Under the pieces are notes generated by a model that saw only the letters and a list, made by a program, of their open reading frames with translations, did not search any database and had not been told where the DNA came from. A stretch of 64,000 nucleotides of DNA. It comes from Nitrospirota bacterium (lineage in GTDB: Bacteria; Nitrospirota; Thermodesulfovibrionia; Thermodesulfovibrionales; Dissulfurispiraceae). Position numbers and translations under genes: made by a program. Below, in pieces: positions 39,814-52,926 of this stretch (position 1 is the first letter of the stretch; each line of letters begins with the position of its first letter). The stretch covers positions 96,001 through 160,000 of the forward strand of contig CAVPZX010000002.1 of assembly GCA_963710375.1 (NCBI GenBank), given 5' to 3'.

Positions 39814-40624
39814 AGGCTATAAGTTCCTCTATTCCCGTCGCGTTTTTTAACCGCTGATATAAAATATCGGCAAGTTTCAACAGGTTCATAGTATCTTCCT
39901 TGTTGTACATCAACAGCAGTTCCCTTGCCTCCATGTTCCCTTTTTTTACCTGCTCCCATAATTTAACAGCGTCATATCCGTTCATGCCCTTGACAACATC
40001 ATCCCTTTCGATGCCGAATAACGTCTCGAGCTTTTTCAACCCTCCGTTGATCTCGAGCTTCCTGGCTGCGAAGCAGAGGTCGAAATGAGGGATGTCAAAC
40101 CTGACGCCTGGAAATGCCCTGAGTAGAAACGGGACATCGAAGGCAGCGCCGTAAAATGTCAACAGGTATTTGTACCCTTTCAATGCGTTGTTGAGGCTCT
40201 CAGCCGTTAAATTTTCCCCGCGTATCAGCGAGCGCCATTCATAGCCGTCATACAGGCCTATGACCGTGACATAACCGCCGTGGTCAGGCTGGAAACCATT
40301 GGTTTCGATATCAAGGCAGACCGCCCCATCCTTAAAAACATCGAAAAGCCTCCAGTGCTCCCTGCGTTTCATTATCCTGGCAAAATACTCGCTATTCCCA
40401 ACGCTGAGTTCCATCGACGCCTGGTTCAGCTGGTCATCGTAAATCCTTTTTCTTTCAGGGCTGATCCCCTCTATTTCCGTACTAGCGCAAAAGTCGTCCC
40501 ACGTAAGGACCTTCTTTTTCCATATCGTTCGCTCAAGCTTCTCTCCTATCCCGTTAAGTAGCGAGAATGTGTTCCTTATCACTGCAGACCCCTTTTCCGG
40601 CCCCGTATAATGCCTTTTAGACAA
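39800..40624 (-). CDS. YprB-like RNase H-fold exonuclease
   Basis: LDIETNG, TFYGAAFDVPFL, GGLKKLE, YNKEDT; start may be GTG at 40582. Confidence 0.85.
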   Translation of the reverse strand: MSKRHYTGPEKGSAVIRNTFSLLNGIGEKLERTIWKKKVLTWDDFCASTEIEGISPERKRIYDDQLNQASMELSVGNSEYFARIMKRREHWRLFDVFKDGAVCLDIETNGFQPDHGGYVTVIGLYDGYEWRSLIRGENLTAESLNNALKGYKYLLTFYGAAFDVPFLLRAFPGVRFDIPHFDLCFAARKLEINGGLKKLETLFGIERDDVVKGMNGYDAVKLWEQVKKGNMEARELLLMYNKEDTMNLLKLADILYQRLKNATGIEELIACGCA

Positions 40625-40836
40625 ATCTTCCAGGGGACCTTTTATAGCTGTTATTATTATACTCTTTATGAATAGTCACTACAACCTGAGGTACCGAGTC
40701 AGTATAAAAATTGCAGATATCTAACTCAAATTGGTAGTATATTTAGTAAAAACATGGAGGATAGCGGTGAGAGACTTGAGGAAAAGATCCAACTGCCCTA
40801 TTCCAACAAAGCCGTCTAGTTGTATACTCTATTCGT

Positions 40837-42264
40837 ATGTCATTTGACCCGAAAGACTCAATTTACATAATATTGGGCGGAATGACAGGGGCCGCCGTGG
40901 CCAGCCTGTTCATATTAATTATTTATTTTTTTTCCGATTTCCGTAAACAAAAAGCTTACAGAAGCAAAATATTAAAACGCCTCGACACCGCAGATATGAT
41001 GCTGCGGGAAAACATGACCATGGATGCGCTATCGATATATAATGAGCTGTTGCTCAATATGCCGAAGCAGCTCCAGCCGGAACTGTATGCCCATATAAAG
41101 CAGAGCGAAGGGAATTGCTATTACGCTATATCACTTGTGCGAAACAAACCGGAAAACCTGATCAAGGCAATCCAGTCATACGAAGAGGCGTTGCGCCATG
41201 ACAGTTACCAAAAAAAACCCGGTGTGTATCTTTCTATTCAGGCCCAGCTCGGCGATGCATACCTGCAAATATCCGAATACCTGAATAAAGAAGATTTTCT
41301 GGCCAAGGCGATATACTCATTCAACGAAGTGCTCAGGCTATATACTCCTGATACCGACCCGGTCAATTACGCATTAATGCAGTACAAACTTGGGTCGTCT
41401 TACAAGTCCCTTGCGGGATCCCAAAAGAAAGAAGGCATTATGCTCCATGCGATCAACGCATTCAATGAGTCGCTGAGAATTTACACCGTCGAGACATATC
41501 CCATCAATTATGCGGAGACACAATATAACCTGGGCGATCTTTTTCTTATGGCTGCAGAAGTCGTTAACCAGGAAGACAATCTCATCAAGGCCCTCGATGC
41601 ATTCTCCAATGCCCTCAGGATTTACACCTTTGGAAGATACAATGTTAATTTTGCCGCGGCCCAAAAAAAGATGGGCAATGCCTATTCTTTACTCACCCTG
41701 ACACGCCGCGAAGAAGAGGTCTTTATCAACGCTATCAACGCCTTTTATCAGGCGCTGAAAGTATACAGCATTGAGGAATATCCCCAGGAATACGTGGGGA
41801 TACAAAACAGCATCGGGACTATCTACCGGGAACTTTCTACGCTGTCCGCCCAAGGTGACAACCTGCGTAAAGCGGTCGCTGCATTCGATGAGGCCCTTAA
41901 AGCATGCTCTTTTGAGACAAACCCTGCCGAATATGCTGCCGTGCAGCACAATATGGGAAATGCCTGTCTTATGCTCTCTGAAATCGATGGCAGCGAGGCT
42001 ATTGTCGAAAAATGCATACACTCCTACCAGGAAACCCTCAAGGTGAAAACAATCAACTATAACCCTGTCGACTTCGCCGCTATACAGCACCGCCTAGGAG
42101 ATGCTTACAGAAACATCTCAAAATATACGAAAAAAGAGGAAAACCTGGACAGGGCAGCCGCGGCTTATAAAGAAGCGCTGAAGGTCTATAATGCCGAGAA
42201 CTATCCTGTTGAACACAGGGAGGTATATTTATCGCTGGAGAAAATCAGAAGGACCGTATCTTAG
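40837..42264 (+). CDS. Membrane-anchored TPR-repeat protein
   Basis: N-terminal TM segment; repeats of the form P..YA..Q..LG..Y...AI..F.EAL..YT. Confidence 0.85.
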   Translation: MSFDPKDSIYIILGGMTGAAVASLFILIIYFFSDFRKQKAYRSKILKRLDTADMMLRENMTMDALSIYNELLLNMPKQLQPELYAHIKQSEGNCYYAISLVRNKPENLIKAIQSYEEALRHDSYQKKPGVYLSIQAQLGDAYLQISEYLNKEDFLAKAIYSFNEVLRLYTPDTDPVNYALMQYKLGSSYKSLAGSQKKEGIMLHAINAFNESLRIYTVETYPINYAETQYNLGDLFLMAAEVVNQEDNLIKALDAFSNALRIYTFGRYNVNFAAAQKKMGNAYSLLTLTRREEEVFINAINAFYQALKVYSIEEYPQEYVGIQNSIGTIYRELSTLSAQGDNLRKAVAAFDEALKACSFETNPAEYAAVQHNMGNACLMLSEIDGSEAIVEKCIHSYQETLKVKTINYNPVDFAAIQHRLGDAYRNISKYTKKEENLDRAAAAYKEALKVYNAENYPVEHREVYLSLEKIRRTVS

Positions 42265-42512
42265 CACTCAGGACTCGCCGGCCCTTCCTCTCCTTTGATC
42301 ACTTTTTCAGCCAGCGCCTTGTCGGCCTGCGGCACCAGAATCCTAATCTCTCCGATCTTGCCTATGTTGACAGGAAAAGGGCTCACTTTCGAAGACCGCA
42401 ACACAACAGGTATCCCGCCGCTTTCCAGAAGGTCCTTGACCATCTCAGCCTCAACGGGATCGCACGTAACCAGCACATCCACCCACTCTTCACTTCCATC
42501 AGATCCCAGCAT
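42261..42512 (-). CDS. DUF2007-like small protein
   Basis: EAEMVKDLLESGGIPV...EIRILVP..D...A; start overlaps the upstream gene's end. Confidence 0.75.
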   Translation of the reverse strand: MLGSDGSEEWVDVLVTCDPVEAEMVKDLLESGGIPVVLRSSKVSPFPVNIGKIGEIRILVPQADKALAEKVIKGEEGPASPEC

Positions 42513-43275
42513 ACCACTCGTATCCTTGGTCTTCCCAGTACCCTCCCTTTCCGCCGGCGATCTTAGAGAAGCTTTCGACGATTTCCAGGCGGATAACATA
42601 CTTCGCGTGTTTGTATCCGAGCTGGCGCTCGACCCGTAAGCGTATCGGCGCACCATTGGCGAGAGGAAGATCCGTTCCGTTCAATTCGTACGCCAGAATG
42701 GTTTGCGGGTGGAATGCGTCCTCCATATCTATGCTCTCGTAGTAGGGAGAACTGCCGTCGTCATTCATCGGGTCGGCACAGTGAAAGACGACATAGCGGG
42801 CATTCGGTTTGAGTTGGACCTTTTCGAGCAGGGGCCCTAAACGCGCTCCCTTCCACTTGCCTATGGCGCTCCATCCCTCGACGCAATCGTGCCTCGTTAT
42901 CTGGGTGCGGCTAGGGAGCGCCCGTATCTCGGCGAGAGAAAACATGCCGGGCTTCTCGACCAAACCGTCAACGGCCAATCGATAATCTGCGAACCCGTTC
43001 TTCGCCATCGCCAAGAATGCCGGGTTGCTGGGCACTGAAGTCCCGTTGCTCCTGAACTTATGAGAAGGGTCCGTCTCAGAGAATTCCCGGACCATAGCCT
43101 TTCTTGGCAGAATCAGTCGCTGAGCGCCCAGGGTCATTTTCTCGCCAAAGCCCAGAATGTTGGGAAACCATGTCGTATCCGAAAGCTTCTGACAGCCGGC
43201 CAAGGCCATGGCTCCGACACCGGCAATCATCCGCGCCAGGAGTCCCCTGCGGTCGATCCCTGTTAAGTTACTCAT
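42499..43275 (-). CDS. Tat-exported molybdopterin oxidoreductase (sulfite-oxidase family, MsrP-like)
   Basis: DRRGLL twin-Arg signal, HDCVEGWS Mo-ligand Cys, HPQTILAY, GAPIRL, LGYKHAK, GGYWEDQGY. Confidence 0.9.
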   Translation of the reverse strand: MSNLTGIDRRGLLARMIAGVGAMALAGCQKLSDTTWFPNILGFGEKMTLGAQRLILPRKAMVREFSETDPSHKFRSNGTSVPSNPAFLAMAKNGFADYRLAVDGLVEKPGMFSLAEIRALPSRTQITRHDCVEGWSAIGKWKGARLGPLLEKVQLKPNARYVVFHCADPMNDDGSSPYYESIDMEDAFHPQTILAYELNGTDLPLANGAPIRLRVERQLGYKHAKYVIRLEIVESFSKIAGGKGGYWEDQGYEWYAGI

Positions 43276-44110
43276 TATCTGACTCCGGCGGAACTTTGAA
43301 ATACCCTGTAATCATAGATCGAACGTTATTCCAGAATCCATTGACAACGACTTCGAAGACATGGACGAACACGAATGCCACCAATGCCCAGGCGATGAGG
43401 AAATGGAGCGTTCTCATGGACTGCCTGCCTCCGAACAGGCTGACCAAACCGGGAAAGAGCGCGTCCAGAGCTGGTGACATGCCAAGCCCCATCAGGATCA
43501 TCGCGGGGGCCATCAGGAAGATCACGGAAAGATAGGCCATCTTCTGCAGTACATTGTAGCGAGTGGCTTCCTCCCCTTTCGGTCGCCGTAACAGTAGGTG
43601 ATCGACGACCGACCTGCCGATTGAATGCAACTCTTGACGGGTGGGCAATAGGCTCCGGGCGACATGTCGGATGAGCAAGGAGTAAGTCACAAAGGTGAAG
43701 CCATTTACCACCAGTAGCCAGGCAAAGAAAAAATGCCAACGCCGGGCCATGGCAAGCCATTGGACACTTGGTATTGTTATCCACGTCGGAAATCCCAGGT
43801 CTATCATGTCTCCATCCAGGTCCTTGGAAGCCCCTAGGAATCCGGTGGTATCCATTTTATAACCGAAGAGGCTTGTAGTCCCTATAAGTTTACCTTCATT
43901 ATCTTCCGCGCTGCGTATTTCAAGCAGTGGCGGGTTTTTCCCGTATGATGATTCTCCCCAGTAAAGTATCGAGTGTGCATTGAAGATGTTGAGGCCGCTC
44001 ATCAGAAGTACGACTAAGGCCGTGACATTGATCCAGTGCATAAGCCGCACAGGCAGAGGATGGCGGTACTGCATTTTTTTCCCGGGTAAGGTATCGTTCA
44101 GGTCTGCCAC
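43268..44110 (-). CDS. Cytochrome b membrane subunit (MsrQ-analogous partner)
   Basis: RLMHW, RRWHF, YNVLQK, RTLHF, HV His-ligand pattern; overlaps the oxidoreductase start. Confidence 0.88.
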   Translation of the reverse strand: MADLNDTLPGKKMQYRHPLPVRLMHWINVTALVVLLMSGLNIFNAHSILYWGESSYGKNPPLLEIRSAEDNEGKLIGTTSLFGYKMDTTGFLGASKDLDGDMIDLGFPTWITIPSVQWLAMARRWHFFFAWLLVVNGFTFVTYSLLIRHVARSLLPTRQELHSIGRSVVDHLLLRRPKGEEATRYNVLQKMAYLSVIFLMAPAMILMGLGMSPALDALFPGLVSLFGGRQSMRTLHFLIAWALVAFVFVHVFEVVVNGFWNNVRSMITGYFKVPPESDNE

Positions 44111-44275
44111 TTCAGTTTACCCCTTGCCAATTACCTTGGAATCTATCACACTCTGGAGACTTATTAGTTTCATATTTCAAAGTTTATCATTCTGATGACA
44201 TTATTACAAATTTTGGCAAATTTGGAAACGATCTTTCCAGTAAAGCCATCTGGGCTTTTTCTATAGTTCATCAGT

Positions 44276-44761
44276 CTATCTTTTAAGCATGTTGGGCCAG
44301 TTCTCATCCGCCTTTTTGATATTTCCGGGAATGTCTTTGCTCCACTTGTCTCTTATTTTCTTACTGAGATTGAGGTAAAGCTTGCCGGCGACAATATTCC
44401 ACTCCTCGGGGTCAATATCAGCTGTGGTTCCGACACTTACTGCAAACGCGCAATAACCACCATATTTTGGCGCATACTTCTCAGGGTTCCTGATGAACAG
44501 ATCCCTGTTTTCGGCGCTTGCGAAATGCCATTTTGCACCCATCCAGATATATTCGAATTCTCCGTTTCCACTTACAGGTTTTCCATCAATAAAATAGGCC
44601 ACAGGATCATAACCCTTAACTGCCACCCCGTCAGAAGTTTTGTTGATAGGTTCTATTGCGGATGCGGGGCCTCCCGACTTTCCTGTGCAACCCGAAAAGA
44701 CGATACCGCCGGCTATGAGTCCGGTCAGCAAGAGCGCCAGTAATAAGGTTGTGTATTTCAT
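44276..44761 (-). CDS. YHS-domain exported protein/lipoprotein (Cys form)
   Basis: FSGC lipobox-like end of signal, GYDPVAYF, FASAENRDLF, P.YGGYCAFAV, KLYLN, ADENW. Confidence 0.88.
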   Translation of the reverse strand: MKYTTLLLALLLTGLIAGGIVFSGCTGKSGGPASAIEPINKTSDGVAVKGYDPVAYFIDGKPVSGNGEFEYIWMGAKWHFASAENRDLFIRNPEKYAPKYGGYCAFAVSVGTTADIDPEEWNIVAGKLYLNLSKKIRDKWSKDIPGNIKKADENWPNMLKR

Positions 44762-45063
44762 TTAACTGTTCCTGTGTAGGTACCGGCCTTCTTCAAGACC
44801 GTTTCCATTTCGCCAATCGTAATTACTGCCGGATCATAATAAACAGTGTTTATCTCTTTCAAGTAGCGAAAGCCTTTTTCAACTCTCTTCACTCCCTTCA
44901 GCCCTGCCAGGGCCTCCTTGCCGACATCGAATCATTTAACATTAAAGATCACCTTCGATGTTCCAGCATCTTGTGCGAAAGAAACACCATAACATAAAAA
45001 GACAAACAACATCAAAACAAAAAGAGTCAAAGACTGAGTGCTTCGGTTCTTCATATAATTCAT
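44758..45063 (-). CDS. Putative exported 101-aa selenoprotein, mini-MsrA/HMA-like (Sec at codon 44)
   Basis: Not in the ORF track. The frame is open except for TGA at 44932-44934; signal peptide; stop overlaps the YHS start (ATGA); GCCCT-GGC-AGGGC hairpin follows the TGA. Confidence 0.72.
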
Positions 45064-45155
45064 AGTTTTCACATCCCTTTATTGTTCACTTTGTTAACTC
45101 TGTCGTCTCTGCCCTTGAAGTAAGAAATCTTGTCTTTGACAAGACTCCGGTTAGC

Positions 45156-45204
45156 AAAAAAACCTATCAAGAGGGCACGTAATTTAGAGTGCCCTCTTGA
45201 TAGG
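45156..45204 (-). terminator. Rho-independent terminator after the Met-rich gene
   Basis: Perfect 16-bp stem (45163-45178 / 45189-45204) followed by T7 on the minus strand. Confidence 0.85.
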
Positions 45205-45261
45205 CTGACTATCTAATATTTATTCGTCTACTTAATGTCTTTCTTTTCCATCACCTAACTT

Positions 45262-45588
45262 TTAGTTGTGAGGAAAAGGAAACAATAAGTCACGCATCTG
45301 CTCGCCCGTGTCCATCATCATCTTGCCGCAGTCCATCATTACCTTGGCCTGATTGCACATCATCTCGCCTTCTCGTTTCATTCCCTTTTCCATCATCATT
45401 TTGCCATTGTCCATCATCATCTGGCCCTTTTCCATCATCATCTGGCCATTGTCCATCATCATCTGGCCCTTTTCCATCATCACTTTTTTGTCCATCGTGT
45501 CGGCGGCTGAAACTAATCCGGTGCCTGCGGAAAGCATAAGACAGAAAAGAAATGCTATTGCTGCTATAGAACATACTATTTTCTTCAT
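45262..45588 (-). CDS. Secreted methionine-rich repeat protein
   Basis: RBS AGGAG, 28-aa signal peptide, MMM(E/D)(K/N)G(Q/K) heptads; 24 Met in 80 mature residues. Confidence 0.88.
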   Translation of the reverse strand: MKKIVCSIAAIAFLFCLMLSAGTGLVSAADTMDKKVMMEKGQMMMDNGQMMMEKGQMMMDNGKMMMEKGMKREGEMMCNQAKVMMDCGKMMMDTGEQMRDLLFPFPHN

Positions 45589-45871
45589 GTTGAACTCTCC
45601 TTTTGATTTTTTACGTTGATCAGATTCCCAAAATAATATTACCCTTATGGTCACGCTCCGCACTCTTATTCTGCTTCTTAATGTCCCCCATGTACACTTC
45701 CTTTAATACATAGTCGTTTATCACCTCGCTTTTCAACTTGTTACTGCATGAACTGTAAGCAGCCTAGCCAAACATCAAAAGCTAGTATGATTCCACTTTA
45801 GCTTGCTGCCTATGATGAATTTCACAACTGCGCCGTTTATTGCACGAAGCCCCACGTAACCAATTAGTTAT

Positions 45872-45927
45872 AGGTTAGCAGAAAAAAAATCACGATATCA
45901 TCACGAAAAAATAACAATTTTATCACG
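45872..45927 (-). promoter_or_regulatory. Four 11-bp-period direct repeats plus extended -10
   Basis: CGTGAT-N5-TGTTAT-N5-CGTGAT-N5-CGTGAT-N8-TGcTAACCT. Confidence 0.78.
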
Positions 45928-45985
45928 GACGAAAAATTGAAAACCGAAGGCTGACTTCTCAGAATTCAACTATTGGAGGTCATGA

Positions 45986-47464
45986 CTAAACCGTATAAAC
46001 CGGCAGGGTGAACGTGAAGGTCGTACCGGCGTTGACCACACTATCGACCTTAATATCACTTCCGTGGAGTTCCAGGATTCTCCTGGTGATGACCAGCCCA
46101 AGCCCCAAACCACCGGTGCCGCCTGCGTAGCTGCGGCCCATTCGATAACTGCGGTCGAATAAATACGGGAAATCCTCCGGCCGGATACCCGCGCCGGTAT
46201 CGGAAACTTGCACCTTTACTCGTCCGCTTTCGAAACCGGCGCTGACGGTAATCGAGCCGTTTTCCGGAGTGTACCTGGCGGCATTTTCGATGAGGTTTTC
46301 GAACACTCTCTCGATGAGTCCAATATCGGCGAACGCCAGCGGAAGGTGTTCAGGGAAGTTCTGTTGAAGCTTGATCTTTTTCTTCTCAGCAGCAAGCTGG
46401 AACTTCTGCATTATGTCCTGGACAAGTTCCGCCAGAGAAAAAGATTCGAGCCTGACCTGGACATCCGGCGAATCAAGTTTAGCCAGTTCAAAGAGTGCGG
46501 TAACCAACTTTCCTAATTGATTGGAACGCTTAATGGCAATTGTGAGAAAGTCCCGTTGCTCCTGCGGCGTCAACTTTCCTTCCTTCAAGAGCAAGGTCTC
46601 AAGGTATCCATGGAGAGACGTCAGAGGCGTTCGGAGGTCGTGTGTGATATTGGCTACTAATTCGCGCCGAAGCGCATCTGCTTGTCTGAGATTCTTTATC
46701 AGCTGAATAATGCGCTCAGCCATCTGAGAGAAGATCGATCCGAGACGGTCAATTTCATCCCCGGAACTGCCCTTAAAGAAAGGCAAAAAATCGGGATTGT
46801 CTGAAAAATCGCTCTGTCTGAAAGTTTCCATGTCAGCGGTAAGACGTTGGAGCCTACGTGTGATCAAGAAGAAGAGGAGAAGTCCAGTTAGTAAGGCAAA
46901 TAACAGGCTCCATGTCACAGCCCATATGCTTAACCGGATGATGTAACTGCCTTGGAGCATCTCTGCGACCGTTTCAAATTCCTCGCTGCCCAGAATGATG
47001 TAAAGATAACCTTGTATTTGATTTTTAACAAAGATTGGCGCCGCGGAGAACACCTTTTTACTTTTTAGGTTACGCGGGTCGTCACCCAGGATGGGAAACG
47101 CATCCGTCTTGTTCAGGAAACTTTTCAGGGGCACCATTGATACCTCCTGCCTTTTTACTTTTCCAAGAGGTGCGGAGAATGCCAGGATTGTGCCGTTTGG
47201 ATTGAGAAGATAGACCTCGATGTTTGGATTAACGATCATCAGCATATGGAAAATATCCTCAAGGGCTTTTTTATTGACCCGACCGTCCTTCATCAAGCTT
47301 GTCTCCGAAGTCAAGTTCTGAGCCAGAGTACGATTGAGCTTCTGGTCCACCTCCTGAAAATACAGCCGGGTGGTGTAGAGAGTGAACAGCATATAAAGGA
47401 TTCCGATCAGACAGAGCAACCCCAGCAGGACAACAGCCAGCTTGCAATAAAGGGTCTTGAACAT
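45986..47464 (-). CDS. HAMP-domain sensor histidine kinase
   Basis: Two TM segments, periplasmic domain, HAMP, ANITHDLRTPL, NLIENA, DTGAGI, GLGLGL. Confidence 0.95.
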   Translation of the reverse strand: MFKTLYCKLAVVLLGLLCLIGILYMLFTLYTTRLYFQEVDQKLNRTLAQNLTSETSLMKDGRVNKKALEDIFHMLMIVNPNIEVYLLNPNGTILAFSAPLGKVKRQEVSMVPLKSFLNKTDAFPILGDDPRNLKSKKVFSAAPIFVKNQIQGYLYIILGSEEFETVAEMLQGSYIIRLSIWAVTWSLLFALLTGLLLFFLITRRLQRLTADMETFRQSDFSDNPDFLPFFKGSSGDEIDRLGSIFSQMAERIIQLIKNLRQADALRRELVANITHDLRTPLTSLHGYLETLLLKEGKLTPQEQRDFLTIAIKRSNQLGKLVTALFELAKLDSPDVQVRLESFSLAELVQDIMQKFQLAAEKKKIKLQQNFPEHLPLAFADIGLIERVFENLIENAARYTPENGSITVSAGFESGRVKVQVSDTGAGIRPEDFPYLFDRSYRMGRSYAGGTGGLGLGLVITRRILELHGSDIKVDSVVNAGTTFTFTLPVYTV

Positions 47465-47468
47465 AAGA

Positions 47469-48182
47469 CTATTCCTTTTGGAAATCGGAGAACTTGTAAC
47501 CGATCCCCCAGACAGTCAAAATATAACGGGGCTTGGCAGGATCTTTTTCGATTTTTGCCCTTAATCGGTTGATGTGAGAATTCACGGTATGTTCGTAGCC
47601 TTCGTAGCCGTACACCCATACCTGTTTCAACAGTTCCATGCGTGTATATACCCTCCCGGGATGACTGACAAAGTGGAGCAGGAGGTCGAACTCTTTGGCT
47701 GTCAATAGCACCGGATTTCCCGAGAGCGTAACCTTCCGCTTTTCAGCATCTATAATAAGAGCACCTGTCTGAATCAGTTTCTGCGATTCCTGAGATGCCT
47801 CTGACTTAAGCGCCTCCACACGACGGAACAGCGCCTTGACCCGTGCCAGAAATTCGTGAATACTAAAGGGTTTGGTCAGGTAATCGTCTGCTCCGATCTC
47901 CAGGCCGAGTACACGGTCAACTTCAGAAGATCTGGACGACAGTATCAACATGGGGATATAGACAGATCCTGCCCTCACTCTCCGGCAGATCTCCAGCCCA
48001 TCTACCGCCGGGAGCGTAAGATCCAAAATAATCAGATCATAGGGTTCCGTGAGTGCATGGTCGAGACCGACGTCACCATCATAGGCAAGAGTTACTTCAT
48101 ATCCCATATCTTTCAGATGGAGCTCAACAAGATGGGCTATATCATTATCATCTTCAATTACAAGGATTCTGCGATGCTGCAT
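47469..48182 (-). CDS. OmpR/PhoB-family response regulator
   Basis: ILVIEDD, IILDLTLP, GADDYLTKPF, HINRLRAKIE, TVWGIGYKF. Confidence 0.95.
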   Translation of the reverse strand: MQHRRILVIEDDNDIAHLVELHLKDMGYEVTLAYDGDVGLDHALTEPYDLIILDLTLPAVDGLEICRRVRAGSVYIPMLILSSRSSEVDRVLGLEIGADDYLTKPFSIHEFLARVKALFRRVEALKSEASQESQKLIQTGALIIDAEKRKVTLSGNPVLLTAKEFDLLLHFVSHPGRVYTRMELLKQVWVYGYEGYEHTVNSHINRLRAKIEKDPAKPRYILTVWGIGYKFSDFQKE

Positions 48183-48263
48183 TTTTGCTCCATGAGCATT
48201 CATGCTGTCGTGATTTATATAAGCATAACATAATGGCATATCCCTAAATTGACATGAAACATC

Positions 48264-48319
48264 CGTGACCAAAAAGTTATCTTTCCGTGATAATTTTGTG
48301 ACTATCGAAATGTTATACT
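48264..48319 (+). promoter_or_regulatory. Four 11-bp-period direct repeats plus extended -10 (msrA promoter)
   Basis: CGTGAC-N5-AGTTAT-N5-CGTGAT-N5-TGTGAC-N8-TGtTATACT. Confidence 0.78.
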
Positions 48320-48328
48320 ACATAACAA

Positions 48329-49132
48329 TTGGTTAATGTCAAGTCCATTATTGCTTTTATAGTTCTTTGGGGGGTTGCAATAAGCGCTGCGACTCTTGTC
48401 TCTCTTGGAGGGGGTAAAAGTATGTCCATGCAACATAACGATACAGAGGCCTTTGTAGCTCAGCCACCCACAGGTCCATCTCTTACCGGTTCATTCGAAA
48501 CGGCTACCTTCGCCCTTGGCTGATTCTGGGGACCGGACTCCCAGTTTGGGAGTGTACCGGGGGTTGTCAGAACCCGAGTAGGATATGCCGGTGGAACTAC
48601 TAAAAATCCCACTTATCACAACTTGGGAGATCACTCCGAGGCGGTTCAAATTGATTTTAATCCCGCTCTCGTCTCATATAGGGAGCTGTTGGATATCTTT
48701 TGGAAGAGCCACAGCGCGACAAGCGGTTCCGGGTCTCGCCAATATAGGGCAGCAGTGTTTTATCACAACGAAAGACAGAGGAAACTTGCCGAAGAATCCC
48801 GAGATCATCTCGGAACGGAAACAGGACGCAGGATTGTGACAGCGATAGAGACCTATTCCGGGTTCCATTTGGCCGAGGACTACCACCAGAAGCACAGTCT
48901 GCGATTATTCCCCGAACTGATGGAGGAATTGAAAGCGCTTTATCCGGACATGAATAATTTTCTAAATTCTGTTGCCGTCACACGAATCAACGGTTACCTT
49001 GGAGGATACGGCACGTGCGACGCTCTCCAAATGGAAGTAGAGAGTTTCGGGCTTTCACCAAAGGCAAGAGAAAGATTGATTTCCGTTGTATGTGGCCGCA
49101 AAGCTTCAGTTACGTGTCCGATCCGGCAATAA
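48329..49132 (+). CDS. msrA: Selenocysteine-containing peptide methionine sulfoxide reductase A
   Basis: ORFs 48329..48523 and 48623..49132 share a frame: ATFALG-TGA-FWGPD...GVVRTRVGYAGG...HSEAVQ...QYR...AEDYHQK. Start is TTG 48329 (with TM segment) or ATG 48422 (with RBS). Confidence 0.92.
48533..48560 (+). promoter_or_regulatory. Candidate bacterial SECIS of msrA
   Basis: ACTCCCA-GTT-TGGGAGT stem-loop; the loop starts with G, 20 nt after the UGA. Confidence 0.65.
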
Positions 49133-49341
49133 ATCCGTTTCCACTTATTATTTTTTATTCCTTTCCTTCATCAAATCCCTTTGGCTAATCGAATTTTAAC
49201 GGGTTTCGCGGTAATCGTTTGATGATATAGGAGGCGCGCATTGACATGTGGTAAAATGATGCAGGGCAGGTCAGCTGTTGTAGTCAGTATTTTTGTTTAT
49301 AAGTAAGGATGTCAATCGTAATATCGGAGAGGAGATGGCAT

Positions 49342-49527
49342 ATGGCTGATCAAGACGATTTATTGGATATTCGTAAAATAATAGAGGAAGGGCATACGCG
49401 TCCGTGCGCTTGTCGGCAAATTTTAGGGGACGGGACCTGTGAATGCAAAATGGGCGTGGTCAGCCCTGTTAAACTCGCACGTGATATCACCGCTATGGAA
49501 ATATCCTATGGCAAAGAAGAATCATAA
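49342..49527 (+). CDS. Small Cys/His-motif hypothetical protein
   Basis: RBS GAGGAG; H..PCACRQILGDGTCEC motif. Confidence 0.55.
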   Translation: MADQDDLLDIRKIIEEGHTRPCACRQILGDGTCECKMGVVSPVKLARDITAMEISYGKEES

Positions 49528-49847
49528 TTGGTTAGGACAGATTAATGATACTGAGTTCATCTTCTAAACCAGAGCAGCACATTGTAAAGAATATCTTTTT
49601 GCGCACCGCTACTTGACCTGTCGGACAAAGAGTCAACTACGGCATTTATAGCCGCTAAGTGTGATTTTAAAAATGATCTTGAGAGTATCAATTTCTGGTT
49701 GAAGGAAAGATATCAAAATTATTCCTTACCCCGCAAGTCGAGAAGCATTAAATCACGAGACTGCCGAAGATTTCCGATGTAATATTGTTAAAACTGATAT
49801 TGGTGATGACCATTGATAAAACTATTTCTCCGTGTTAGCATTGGGCT

Positions 49848-52800
49848 ATGAAAATGTTGCCGGCGATTTTTCAACTATCTAGCTACTCGTTCAATTTATG
49901 GGCAATTCCCGTTGCCTGTGTCGTGCTCATACTCGCAGCGCTTGACCTGAAACGTTTTTATCAAGAGCGTTTTGAGCGGACCAGCTTGACACTCGACCTA
50001 CTGACATTCTTTATCTTGATATGGCAGGTCTCAGTTTTCTTTATGTACAGACTCAACCAATGCAGACGTTGCTCTTTGGTGGGCAAAAGCAGTCTATCTC
50101 GGCGTTCCTTTTATTCCCTCAGCTCTTTATTTTTTTGTCATCACCGCATTGAACCTCTATGAAAAGCATAAACGGCTAAATGCCCTAATCTGGGTATTAT
50201 CCTTGTTTTCTTCCATTCTCATGGTAGGTACGGACTTGGTCTATAGTAAGGTAAAGCATTTTCCGTGGGGGTATTACCCTCAGTTCACTTTGTGGAGCAT
50301 AATGTACCTGATCCCTTTCGGGATTGTGTTAGGAATTAGCTACCACGTACTTCTGCTGGCCTATAAGCAAGAAATACACAGCCTCAAGCGGCGATTTCGC
50401 ATCAGGTCATTTCTTCTTGCCCTTGGTATTGGAGGATCGGCGGTCGTTGATTATCTCGCAAACTTTGATATTGCAGTATATCCCGCCGGCTACATTGCGG
50501 TATTGGTCAGTACAATCATACTCAATAGGACCGTAGCAAAATACAAGCTTATCGATATCACCCCTAAGTTTGCTGCGCAGGGTATTCTCGATACAATGGA
50601 TGAAGCCCTGATTGCAATTGATGCGGAGGGTATTATCAGGTTGATCAATCGTGCAGCCACGGTGATGTTAGGGCGGCCGGAAGAGGACCTTCTCGGAAGG
50701 CCGTTTACAATGATTTTCGGCGAAGGTAACCAATCGGTACTTGACGGTAGCGCCTCGTCCGGTCCCGTACGCTGTTACGAATTATCCTATATGCATCCTG
50801 ACGACGTTCCGCAAATCCTCAGCATATCTGCATCGTCGATGAAAGACGACAGCGGGAGCGTTATAGCCACTGTTTGTACAGTCAGGGACATTACTGACAG
50901 CAAACGGACGGAAGAGGCGCTCAGAAAGGCGAAGACTGCTGCGGAAGCTGCGAATCTGGCAAAGGGCGAGTTTCTGGCAAACATGAGCCACGAAATCCGC
51001 ACCCCAATGAACGGCATCATTGGGATGACCGGTTTGCTTCTAGACACAGGGCTTTCTGAGGAGCAGAGGAACTATGCCGAGATGCTGCGCTCAAGCGGCG
51101 AGTTGTTGCTGGGCCTGATCAACGATATCCTTGACTTCTCCAAGATAGAGGCAGGCAAACTGGAGATAGAGACAATAGAGTTTGATCTGAGAAACACGCT
51201 TGAAGAGACTGCTGAGTTTCTGGCCTTGAGGGCCCACGAAAAGGGTCTTGAGTTAATATGCCGGATAGACCCTGGCGTCCACACATTTCTAATAGGCGAC
51301 CCTGGCCGGCTTCGCCAGATATTGGTCAACCTGATAGGGAATGCCATCAAGTTCACCTCAGTGGGCGAGGTGGTTATCGAAGCAGTGACGGAATATGAGA
51401 GAGACGGTCAGATTGCGGTGCGTTTCAATATAAGGGATACGGGCATTGGGATACCAGAAGACAAACTGCCTTTATTGTTTGACAGTTTTCAGCAGGTTGA
51501 TGCCTCTACATCGAGGAAGTTTGGAGGCAGCGGCCTAGGGTTGGCAATATCTAGGCGTCTGGTTGAGCTAATGAACGGCAGGATAGGGGTTGAAAGCATA
51601 GAAGGGAAGGGTTCCAACTTCTGGTTTACAGCAGTGTTCGATAAGGGGAGTCAGCCGGACAGGGGAGAAATGCCTCCATTTGTCGATATCAGCGGGGTGA
51701 GGATACTGTCAGTAGACGACAATGCGGTGAACCGCATTGTAATTGCAGAGCAGATGAAGTCGTGGGGAGTGCGCAATGCCGAGGCCGGGGGAGCTTTAAA
51801 GGCGATGGAGATGCTCCATGCTGCTCAAGCTGAAGGGGACCCTTTTCGGGTTGTAGTTACTGATATGCAGATGCCTGGGATGGACGGCGAAGCCCTTGCC
51901 AGGGCCATCAAGGCAGACCCAGCTTTGAGGGACACTTTGCTGATTATGCTGACATCCAGCGGGATGCGGGGAGATGCAAAGCGGCTTGCGAGCCTTGGAT
52001 TTTCTGCATATCTGACCAAGCCTGTAAGGATGTTCCAACTGCACAACTGCATAGCCGCAGTCCTTGGTGGGAGCAGTCTGCATGAAAAGGCCCAGGAAGC
52101 CGCTATTATTACCGGTCACCGGCTTCGTGAGGAATCCAGGCAGAATGCGCGCATTCTACTGGTGGAGGATAACAAAGTGAATAAACTGGTGGCAGAGGGC
52201 ATTCTGGGGAAATTGGGGTTCATTGCTGACACTGCTGACAATGGCCAGCAGGCGATCAATATAATGGAAGCCGCCCCTTACGACATAGTCTTCATGGATG
52301 TGCAGATGCCTGTTATGGATGGGTATCAGGCTACGAAAGCTATCCGGGATGGCAAGACAAAGGCAGCGAATCCCAATGTTCCTATTATTGCAATGACAGC
52401 CCATGCCATGAAGAGTGACAGGGAGAAATGCCTGCAATGGGGTATGGACGATTATATATCTAAGCCAATCTCGCTGCAGGAAGTGGCTAAGGCGCTTGAA
52501 AAATGGCTGCCACAGGCGCATGTCAAGTTGCCGGCAGCAACTGATAGGGCCTCTGATAAGACAGCAGCAGTAGAGGCATTACAGGTCTTTGACTATGCAG
52601 GGCTTATGGAACGCATGATGGATGACATGGATCTGGCCAGAAGAGTTATCACTGCATTTATGAAGAGAATCCCCGGGATGCTTGATAAGCTAAGGGAGCA
52701 GATAGATCGGGGCGATGCAGAACTTGCCGGAAGACAAACCCACAAGATCAAGGGGGCAGCGTCCAACACAGGATGTATGGCAATGAGCGCCGTAGCAGCT

Positions 52801-52926
52801 GATATGCAGAAGGCCGGAGAGCGAGGGGAAATGGAGACACTTATTGCACTTATGCCTAAACTTGAAGGCCAGTTTGAGTTACTGAAGGCTAAAATCAAAG
52901 ACTTGGGGGTCTTAGAAGTCATATAA
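49848..52926 (+). CDS. Hybrid histidine kinase: multi-TM, PAS, HisKA, HATPase, two REC, Hpt (apparent frameshift near 50050)
   Basis: [15 protein letters not shown], two receiver domains, HKIKG Hpt. Removing one base gives [26 protein letters not shown], joining the two ORFs. Confidence 0.9.

Follow-up and report, generated by a model that had tools for sequence, protein, structure and literature searches.

The locus considered here raises the question of whether neighboring genes for a methionine (Met)-rich protein, selenocysteine (Sec)-containing proteins, and a molybdenum (Mo) enzyme in a Nitrospirota bacterium constitute one regulated system, and of which kind. It lies in a stretch of 64,000 nucleotides, hereafter the window, that represents positions 96,001 to 160,000 of contig CAVPZX010000002.1 (G000:C2:96001-160000, where G### codes stand for genomes, L### for loci, and X1-X4 for the runs used for depth and contig comparison). 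The genome, G000, comprises 3.19 Mb in nine contigs and is 98.8% complete, and more than 90% of the words of the locus were recovered in five soil-metagenome runs from two studies, of which one may be its source. The locus is quite probably an OrhK/OrhR-type two-component regulon, likely devoted to envelope defense against Met oxidation, to which two genes with Sec codons have been added.

Gene content, operator, and sensor

All eight genes named in a preliminary description of this DNA were confirmed in the window by open reading frame (ORF) calls and by NCBIfam and Pfam family models (Table 1). On the minus strand, they follow the order of regulator, kinase, Met-rich gene, small Sec gene, YHS gene, cytochrome b gene, and Mo-enzyme gene, with msrA divergent. 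The demonstrated part of the system consists of these genes, the operator in its two copies, an in-frame TGA codon in each of two genes together with a conserved hairpin, and the homologies described below. The two TGA codons, in the small gene and msrA, both occupy catalytic-type positions; contigs of X3 and X4 span that of the small gene without differences, and X3 also spans that of msrA.

The shared operator at two promoters that had been proposed is real, and its sites number exactly two genome-wide, both at this locus. Both copies have the same layout of CGTGA-type repeats at an 11-bp period, followed by 12 nt and an extended -10 element; the two 57-nt copies are identical at 38 positions and form the longest inverted repeat within 44100-48500 (40 nt, 78%). 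An operator profile of 57 columns was built from 36 sites in related loci of other genomes, with the window copies left out of training; the training sites were gathered with a short window-derived seed, which makes nine columns circular and leaves the remaining columns and the placement independent. In a scan of G000, the two window sites (scores in Table 1) were followed by a next best match of 10.4 bits, with a maximum of 11.2 bits in three shuffled genomes, so the predicted operator regulon comprises these two promoters only. The pattern and its spacing are conserved in related loci: the profile matched 45 sites in 32 of 48 such loci (training sites included), nearly all of them a short distance ahead of a gene for MsrA/MsrB, the small protein, a Met-rich or YHS protein, or the regulator, and sites were also found in 35 of 80 metagenome loci, none of them training data. 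Half of the motif is recognizable upstream of kinase-linked genes in Methylocalor and Chondrinema.

Two minor observations concern these promoters. A sigma70-like promoter candidate for the regulator (48342-48315, on the other strand) overlaps the msrA -10 element and would put the operator just downstream of its own start, which hints at autoregulation. The stretch from the operator promoter to the Met-rich gene is unusually long, at approximately 280 nt (45589-45871), and has no Rfam match; an Rfam scan of 40000-52000 gave nothing credible.

The kinase and OrhK are reciprocal best hits with 37% identity overall and 40% in the sensor domain (E 7e-37), and the closest relatives of the kinase among titled records belong to Nitrospirota, Dissulfurispiraceae, and Thermodesulfovibrionales. 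The preliminary description had compared the pair to HprSR of Escherichia coli, which controls periplasmic Met-sulfoxide repair by the Mo enzyme of MsrPQ and is alike in that respect, but the pair is OrhKR-like instead. The sensor domain has no match to HprS or CusS at E<=10, the kinase matches HprS in its cytoplasmic part only (27%), and the best match of HprSR in G000 is another pair. A periplasmic residue, Met76, is kept in 30 of 30 kinases, OrhK among them. It belongs to a His-Met-x-Met motif (His73/Met74/Met76) whose His73 is not invariant and has no counterpart in OrhK. By analogy with HprS, the kinase may sense oxidant through oxidation of Met76. No such sensing residue of OrhK is named in the accessible text of PMC8550376. 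A sharp operator and a single candidate sensing residue make the sensing mechanism of this kinase family testable.

Table 1. Coordinates of the features of the locus in the window.
Feature	Position	Strand	Remarks
Tat-exported sulfite-oxidase-family Mo enzyme, MsrP-like	42499..43275	-	RHDCVEGWS; PF00174; C3567/'HGT' YedY clade
Membrane cytochrome b561, predicted electron donor to the Mo enzyme	43268..44110	-	PF01292; overlaps Mo-enzyme start
Exported YHS-domain (seleno)protein family member, Cys form	44276..44761	-	NF041384; lipobox-like signal
Small exported selenoprotein, 101 aa	44758..45063	-	Sec TGA 44932-44934; ATGA overlap with YHS gene
SECIS (selenocysteine insertion sequence)-like hairpin downstream of small-gene TGA	44900..44914	-	core tied to TGA copies
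Intrinsic-terminator-like hairpin	45156..45204	-	16-bp perfect stem and T7; between Met-rich and small Sec genes
Secreted Met-rich protein, 7-residue repeats	45262..45588	-	N-terminal hydrophobic stretch; 30% Met in mature form
Operator (CGTGA repeats, 11-bp period) and extended -10, facing Met-rich gene	45872..45928	-	48.5 bits
OrhK-family sensor histidine kinase	45986..47464	-	reciprocal best hit of OrhK; invariant periplasmic Met76
OrhR-family OmpR-type response regulator	47469..48182	-	reciprocal best hit of OrhR, 53%
Operator and extended -10, facing msrA	48263..48319	+	57.9 bits
Sec-containing MsrA	48329..49132	+	GUFWG; TGA 48521-48523; TIGR00401 128 bits vs. cut-off 108

Relation to known systems and coherence of the proposed regulon

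In uropathogenic E. coli (UPEC), OrhK/OrhR was shown to bind c3566-c3568, to activate it when H2O2 is present, and to confer protection against peroxide (PMC8550376, 2021). The module of strain CFT073 (OrhK/OrhR, C3564/C3565) has in common with the window a reciprocal-best kinase and regulator with the same sensor domain, a Mo enzyme of the same clade, a PF01292-type cytochrome, a secreted Met-rich peptide, and GTGA half-sites in the target promoter. The window differs in adding a Sec-MsrA, a YHS protein, and a small selenoprotein, in its gene order, and in having no toxin operon. Its operator consists of four direct repeats, whereas an inverted repeat, TCACA-N15-TGTGA, is proposed in PMC8550376; the CFT073 promoter reaches only 4.3 bits on the core operator profile, with the GTGA half-sites being common to both. 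The Met-rich proteins of the two systems are alike in composition and otherwise not alignable. A plasmid search with the sensor region also found the same kinase family on E. coli plasmids, where neighboring genes encode an MsrP-like enzyme, a cytochrome b, and a peptide with 17% Met, and this four-gene module occurs in 73 of 5426 E. coli genomes. The plasmid module (L143, NC_017722.1), known also from Klebsiella and Shigella plasmids, differs at the DNA level from the chromosomal CFT073 copy. As a further observation, RefSeq marks the CFT073 cytochrome gene c3566 as frameshifted (L164:10552-11150, NC_004431.1), although its deletion is reported to have a phenotype (PMC8550376).

The 'HGT' YedY clade, of which c3567 of CFT073 is a member, is listed in the supplement of PMC4436054 (2015) with mrpX nearby 14 times, a histidine kinase system three times, and msrA/B three times. 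Similarly, the yedY1Z1-mrpX system of Azospira suillum (SigF/NrsF) and bcrXQP of Brucella, the latter an extracytoplasmic function (ECF)-controlled version under BcrS/AbcS (PMC8315932), combine a Met-rich periplasmic sink with a Tat-exported 'HGT clade' YedY and a membrane cytochrome. They differ in being controlled by an ECF sigma factor instead of a two-component system and in having no selenoproteins. A perchlorate-respiration context is not supported for the window, since no chlorite dismutase was found in G000. With reciprocal-best OrhK/OrhR and a Mo enzyme of the C3567 clade, the core therefore belongs to a published kind, and the novelty claimed in the preliminary description was overstated: the sensor pair, MsrPQ-like pair, and Met-rich peptide are those of the OrhK/OrhR-c3566-c3568 module, and PMC4436054 had already recorded mrpX, histidine kinases, and msrA/B as neighbors of this YedY clade. 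The defense logic overall is already known; the additions are the Sec-MsrA, the YHS lipoprotein, and the 101-aa exported selenoprotein. The full gene combination was not found described in a literature search that covered subscription papers thinly, so its absence from print is unproven. OrhK/OrhR, tested only in UPEC, is hereby extended to anaerobic Nitrospirota and Desulfobacterota, where the regulon that it heads is modular and includes exported MsrA/MsrB, Met-rich proteins, and Mo enzymes that can stand in for one another.

The Mo enzyme carries a twin-Arg 'DRRGLL' and a lipobox-like 'LAGC', and the cytochrome b561 has histidines at His25/126/236/250. In a tree computed without A. suillum YedY1 itself, the enzyme falls into a 13-row group with UPEC C3567 (support 96/92), apart from E. 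coli MsrP, which forms a long branch, and from SorA/SoxC-like enzymes; its identity to E. coli MsrP is 31% over 136 aa. The best G000 match of the cytochrome of the E. coli plasmid module is the window cytochrome. The Mo enzyme likely repairs oxidized Met outside the cytoplasm. The GC content of its gene is 56%, against 47% for the genome, and its best plasmid match, from Paraburkholderia, is 65% identical; the higher GC and this match suggest a recent insertion of the Mo enzyme/cytochrome pair. A DUF2007-family ORF (window 42261-42512) overlaps the stop of the Mo-enzyme gene on the same strand and may be co-transcribed.

The Met-rich protein has 24 Met among its 80 mature residues and a Met content of 24% in full length, which makes it the most Met-rich ORF of at least 60 aa in G000. 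It has 16 homologues at E<=0.001 and resembles MrpX-like sinks, which are marked by a signal peptide, approximately 20% Met or more, and many charged residues; its own signal was recognized as an N-terminal hydrophobic stretch only. Met-rich secreted ORFs were found in 10 of 40 regulon-type loci, five of them with a sulfite-oxidase-family Mo enzyme of another clade; flags at L021, L086-L089, L095, L098, L099, and L110 were discounted on visual inspection because the ORFs were shadow ORFs or not secreted. Elsewhere in the genome, a second Met/His-rich exported protein (G000:C2:257518-258327, 19% Met) lies beside a TonB-dependent receptor without the operator and looks metal-related. The YHS protein reaches 168.7 bits on NF041384 (cut-off 70) and carries GGYCAF, so it is not a selenoprotein here; a Sec form (GGYUA) lies directly behind a small Sec gene in a regulon of the same type (L011:1500-1886).

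MsrA has the GUFWG motif, the PMSR domain (PF01625, together with a weak PF20939 match), a downstream hairpin, and the Sec machinery in its genome (selA by inference from reads), and its TGA is kept in the homologues of L012, L021, L103, L117, and L153. It thus resembles known Sec-MsrA (Table 1 of PMC13188914; PDB 4lwj) in motif and in both domain matches, and differs from it in a possible N-terminal signal/anchor. It carries three C-terminal Cys, of which the homologues of L012 and L021 have none. Translation could begin at TTG 48329, with the signal/anchor, or at ATG 48422, with a good ribosome-binding site and no signal. Export is thus uncertain, and the enzyme may be cytoplasmic or dual-located.

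The mechanism proposed here, which we infer in all its steps from oxidant sensing to the role of the small selenoprotein, would run as follows. An oxidant, either H2O2 as for OrhK or reactive chlorine, would oxidize Met76 of the kinase in the periplasm, and the phosphorylated regulator would bind the four CGTGA-type repeats, which would replace the -35 element, and activate the two promoters. Large amounts of the Met-rich protein would be produced to act as a sacrificial sink, and the four genes behind the terminator (for the small selenoprotein, YHS protein, cytochrome b, and Mo enzyme) would be expressed at a lower level by partial read-through. With electrons drawn from the quinone pool via the cytochrome, the Mo enzyme would reduce Met-sulfoxide in the sink and in other periplasmic proteins. 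Sec-MsrA would reduce the S-epimer; if translated from the signal-bearing start, it would do so in the periplasm, and otherwise in the cytoplasm. The small selenoprotein would serve as a one-selenol redox partner of MsrA/MsrB-type enzymes, as recycler or direct scavenger; this is the least certain step. The earlier proposal of an oxidant-induced envelope module with a sacrificial Met sink recycled by Msr-type enzymes is thus well supported by homology to the tested system and by neighborhood conservation, with the reservation that recycling by Sec-MsrA needs its export, which is uncertain.

Several observations weigh against this regulon reading. A strong terminator separates the Met-rich gene from the four genes downstream and may uncouple them: it has a free energy of -34.1 kcal/mol (z -7.3, 0 of 200 shuffles), occurs in a single copy in the genome, and was missed by the automatic terminator scan because its loop exceeds 8 nt. 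The genome-wide profile scan assigned no operator of their own to the small Sec, YHS, cytochrome, and Mo-enzyme genes. Co-regulation of these last four genes therefore requires read-through, which would suit a high ratio of sink to enzyme. The Mo enzyme stays below the MsrP model NF003767 (97 bits vs. cut-off 207), the cytochrome fails the MsrQ family model and has no BLAST match to MsrQ at E<=0.01, and the Msr activity of C3567 is called putative in PMC8550376. At msrA, the signal-bearing TTG lies approximately 3 nt after the predicted transcription start without a ribosome-binding site, and approximately 85 nt present in the upstream region of L012 are missing. Furthermore, the Mo clade of the window and the small protein, found in 24 and 25 of 301 Nitrospirota genomes, respectively, overlap in G000 only, the operator occurs in none of eight loci of this Mo clade, and the search of other genomes gave no second case of exactly this gene set.

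The neighborhood search recovered a recurring unit of regulator, kinase, operator, small gene, msrA, and msrB, to which variable parts are joined (Met-rich genes, sulfite-oxidase-family Mo enzymes of other clades, YHS, a beta-propeller protein, and a di-heme peroxidase-like protein), and a Met-rich gene lies beside the cytochrome in three of eight loci of the window's Mo clade. Among the genomes searched, G000 is the only one with the full set, and also the only one in which the Mo enzyme/cytochrome pair of this clade accompanies the small selenoprotein. What G000 carries is a one-off mixture of exchangeable components and not a conserved gene set, so that the word island of the preliminary description is not supported in that sense.

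A looser arrangement, in which regulation is confined to the Met-rich gene and msrA, the small Sec, YHS, cytochrome, and Mo genes form a separate or near-silent tail, and the Mo pair is a recent insertion, draws on the terminator, the lack of a downstream operator, the 165-nt gap between the YHS and cytochrome b genes, the higher GC of the Mo pair, and the failure of the Mo clade to co-occur with the regulon elsewhere in Nitrospirota. It is nevertheless unlikely, as the small gene stands first or early behind the same operator in most relatives, the YHS gene lies directly behind the small gene in L010, the same sensor family controls the same Mo clade in E. coli, and no credible internal promoter, only weak consensus matches, was found.

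The small exported selenoprotein

The candidate exported selenoprotein of the preliminary description held up, with an in-frame TGA aligned with Cys and a hairpin that goes together with TGA. The 34 loci examined gave 33 copies (the broken copy of L053 gave no row, and related copies are not independent), in which the Sec/Cys column is TGA in 18 and TGT/TGC in 15, and the SECIS-like core was found in 18 of the 18 TGA copies and one of the 15 Cys copies; the window hairpin alone is not unusually stable (z 0.22). Over 79 covered rows of the wider family, the column holds 48 Cys and 27 Trp, the latter taken as TGA read by code 4. A profile search gave 250 representatives at E<=0.001, and, of 351 genomes in the phylum of G328, 14 carry the protein, 11 in a TGA form.

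The window protein passes no NCBIfam (20.0) or Pfam cut-off, including PF00403, to which one of 45 members has a weak match; all 45 weakly match the C-terminal domain of NF041383 and 39 match NF041115. It shares the ferredoxin-like fold with the VPGUxxT type-2 (NF041383) and UxxU metal-binding (NF041115) (seleno)proteins and with MerP/CopZ HMA domains, but it scores 31 bits against 275 for NF041383 and 23 against 95 for NF041115, and it is a stand-alone domain of 70 residues with one Sec/Cys, no thioredoxin domain, and no CxxC/UxxU. The family is missing from the accessible Table 1 of the 119-family inventory of 2026 (PMC13188914), so a selenoprotein family absent from that inventory and from NCBIfam 20.0 is added here; no description of it was found in a literature search with thin coverage of subscription papers, by which absence from print is unproven, and the ESM Atlas gave only unnamed clusters, below 0.9.

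The predicted structure (predicted local distance difference test, pLDDT, 91.7) has a beta-alpha-beta-beta-alpha-beta fold that matches HMA domains with Z up to 10.0 (root-mean-square deviation, rmsd, 1.8 over 66 residues) and the N-terminal core of MsrA with Z 8.1 (rmsd 1.4 over 66 residues; 4lwj). Profile alignment, for which the inputs were small (28 and 12 rows), gave 93.9% for the family against MsrA and 91.9% against HMA, compared with 13% for HMA against MsrA. The Sec aligns with the catalytic Cys of MsrA and with the second Cys of HMA, an invariant Glu aligns with the conserved Glu of MsrA, and the G-aromatic position is kept, with U[FY]D replacing CFW; the G-F...E pattern is also seen in MerP. 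Counting against a kinship with MsrA are the lack of its Trp and C-terminal half, with neither the GCFW motif nor a full PMSR domain present, and the best structural Z falling to HMA domains.

The neighborhood points to Msr enzymes. Within 7.5 kb of the small gene, MsrA was found at 28, MsrB at 25, an OrhK-like kinase at 22, and a sulfite-oxidase-family Mo enzyme at 11 of 43 loci (L171, with identity below 40%, was dropped), and any of MsrA, MsrB, or such a Mo enzyme at 36 of 43 genome loci and 68 of 80 metagenome loci; some loci are truncated where contigs end, not every locus comes from a different genome, and only Cys forms were scanned for in the metagenomes. In L153 (G526:C4:181835-185044), a small Sec domain is fused in frame to a Sec-MsrA of the window type behind one signal peptide, the single-sequence fold of which (pLDDT 40) was too poor for use. 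An apparent fusion at L197 was rejected as a lost stop, since the signal peptide of MsrA is retained. Upstream of the L153 fusion lies a peroxiredoxin-like ORF with RGVWUPYC and another in-frame TGA, and in distant metagenome loci (L221-L256), distant members stand behind a different two-component system (kinase approximately 30%), still followed by msrB/msrA.

It is tentatively suggested, at less than even chances, that this unlisted family represents the MsrA core in minimal form and links MsrA with HMA domains in evolution, acting as a dedicated one-selenol electron shuttle (or catalytic oxidant scavenger) for periplasmic MsrA/MsrB in anaerobes, under an OrhK-family kinase that senses oxidants via one invariant Met. 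This would offer a hypothesis of how periplasmic Msr enzymes that lack a fused thioredoxin obtain electrons. The periplasmic thiol electrons could come from the product of a CcdA/DsbD-type gene located elsewhere in G000.

Alternatively, the locus could be read as a copper/silver or mercury module. On this reading, the Met-rich protein would be a ligand of Cu(I)/Ag(I), the HMA-fold protein would act as a metallochaperone with one selenol, and His73/Met74/Met76 would allow the kinase to detect metal. HMA/MerP as the top matches, the label 'copper chaperone CopZ' given by JGI to some members, the His-Met-x-Met of the sensor, MerA-like flavoproteins near some loci, and a Paraburkholderia homologue of the Mo enzyme adjoining cueR and a Cu-ATPase all agree with it. 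It is improbable, because no family member has a CxxC and each has one Cys/Sec only, no metal exporter was seen among gene clusters recurring in at least three of 41 loci (judged by eye, not by family scan), the sensor domain does not match CusS, His73 is neither invariant nor present in OrhK, and the tested homologue, OrhK/OrhR, responds to H2O2.

Selenocysteine machinery

The preliminary description had made the role of selenium depend on selABCD in the genome. In G000, selB, tRNA-Sec (selC), a TGA-containing selD, and two Sec-FdhA (fdhA) genes with intact motifs are present; selA, whose absence counts against the Sec reading of the two genes, was not found in the 98.8% complete assembly by two models and tblastn. 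A contig with a cooC-like gene and selA, approximately 88% identical to the locus of a congener, was found in four runs. Its depth was 15.5-16.6 in X1, 8.8 in X2, 4.6-8.2 in X3, and 6.4-8.9 in X4, compared with 15.7-15.9 in X1, 3.9-7.6 in X3, and 6.8-11.6 in X4 for the window contig and 8.0-8.2 in X2 for a neighboring contig with flanks matching G000:C6, and its downstream flank is absent from G000. selA is thus likely missing through an assembly gap, though no contig joins it to G000. That selA has been lost and both TGA codons are mere stops, as the failed searches and its absence from four of nine other genomes of the genus might suggest, is hardly credible, given an assembly in nine contigs, a selA contig that tracks the depth of the window population in X1, X3, and X4 and of the G000 neighbor in X2, the intact selB, selC, selD, and fdhA motifs, and the finding of selA in all 17 high-quality genomes of the 29 with related loci.

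At 1.6 kb from tRNA-Sec, another cluster of G000 (L176, G000:C4:273357-277629) encodes di-heme peroxidase-like and OsmC-like proteins, an exported Cys-MsrA, and a MerA/RclA-like flavoprotein; similar genes sit behind the operator in G008, and no operator was found at L176. Beyond msrA in the window, a hybrid histidine kinase gene (50149-52926) has a 5' part (49813-50171) that is apparently split across frames, like a frameshifted membrane sensor domain.

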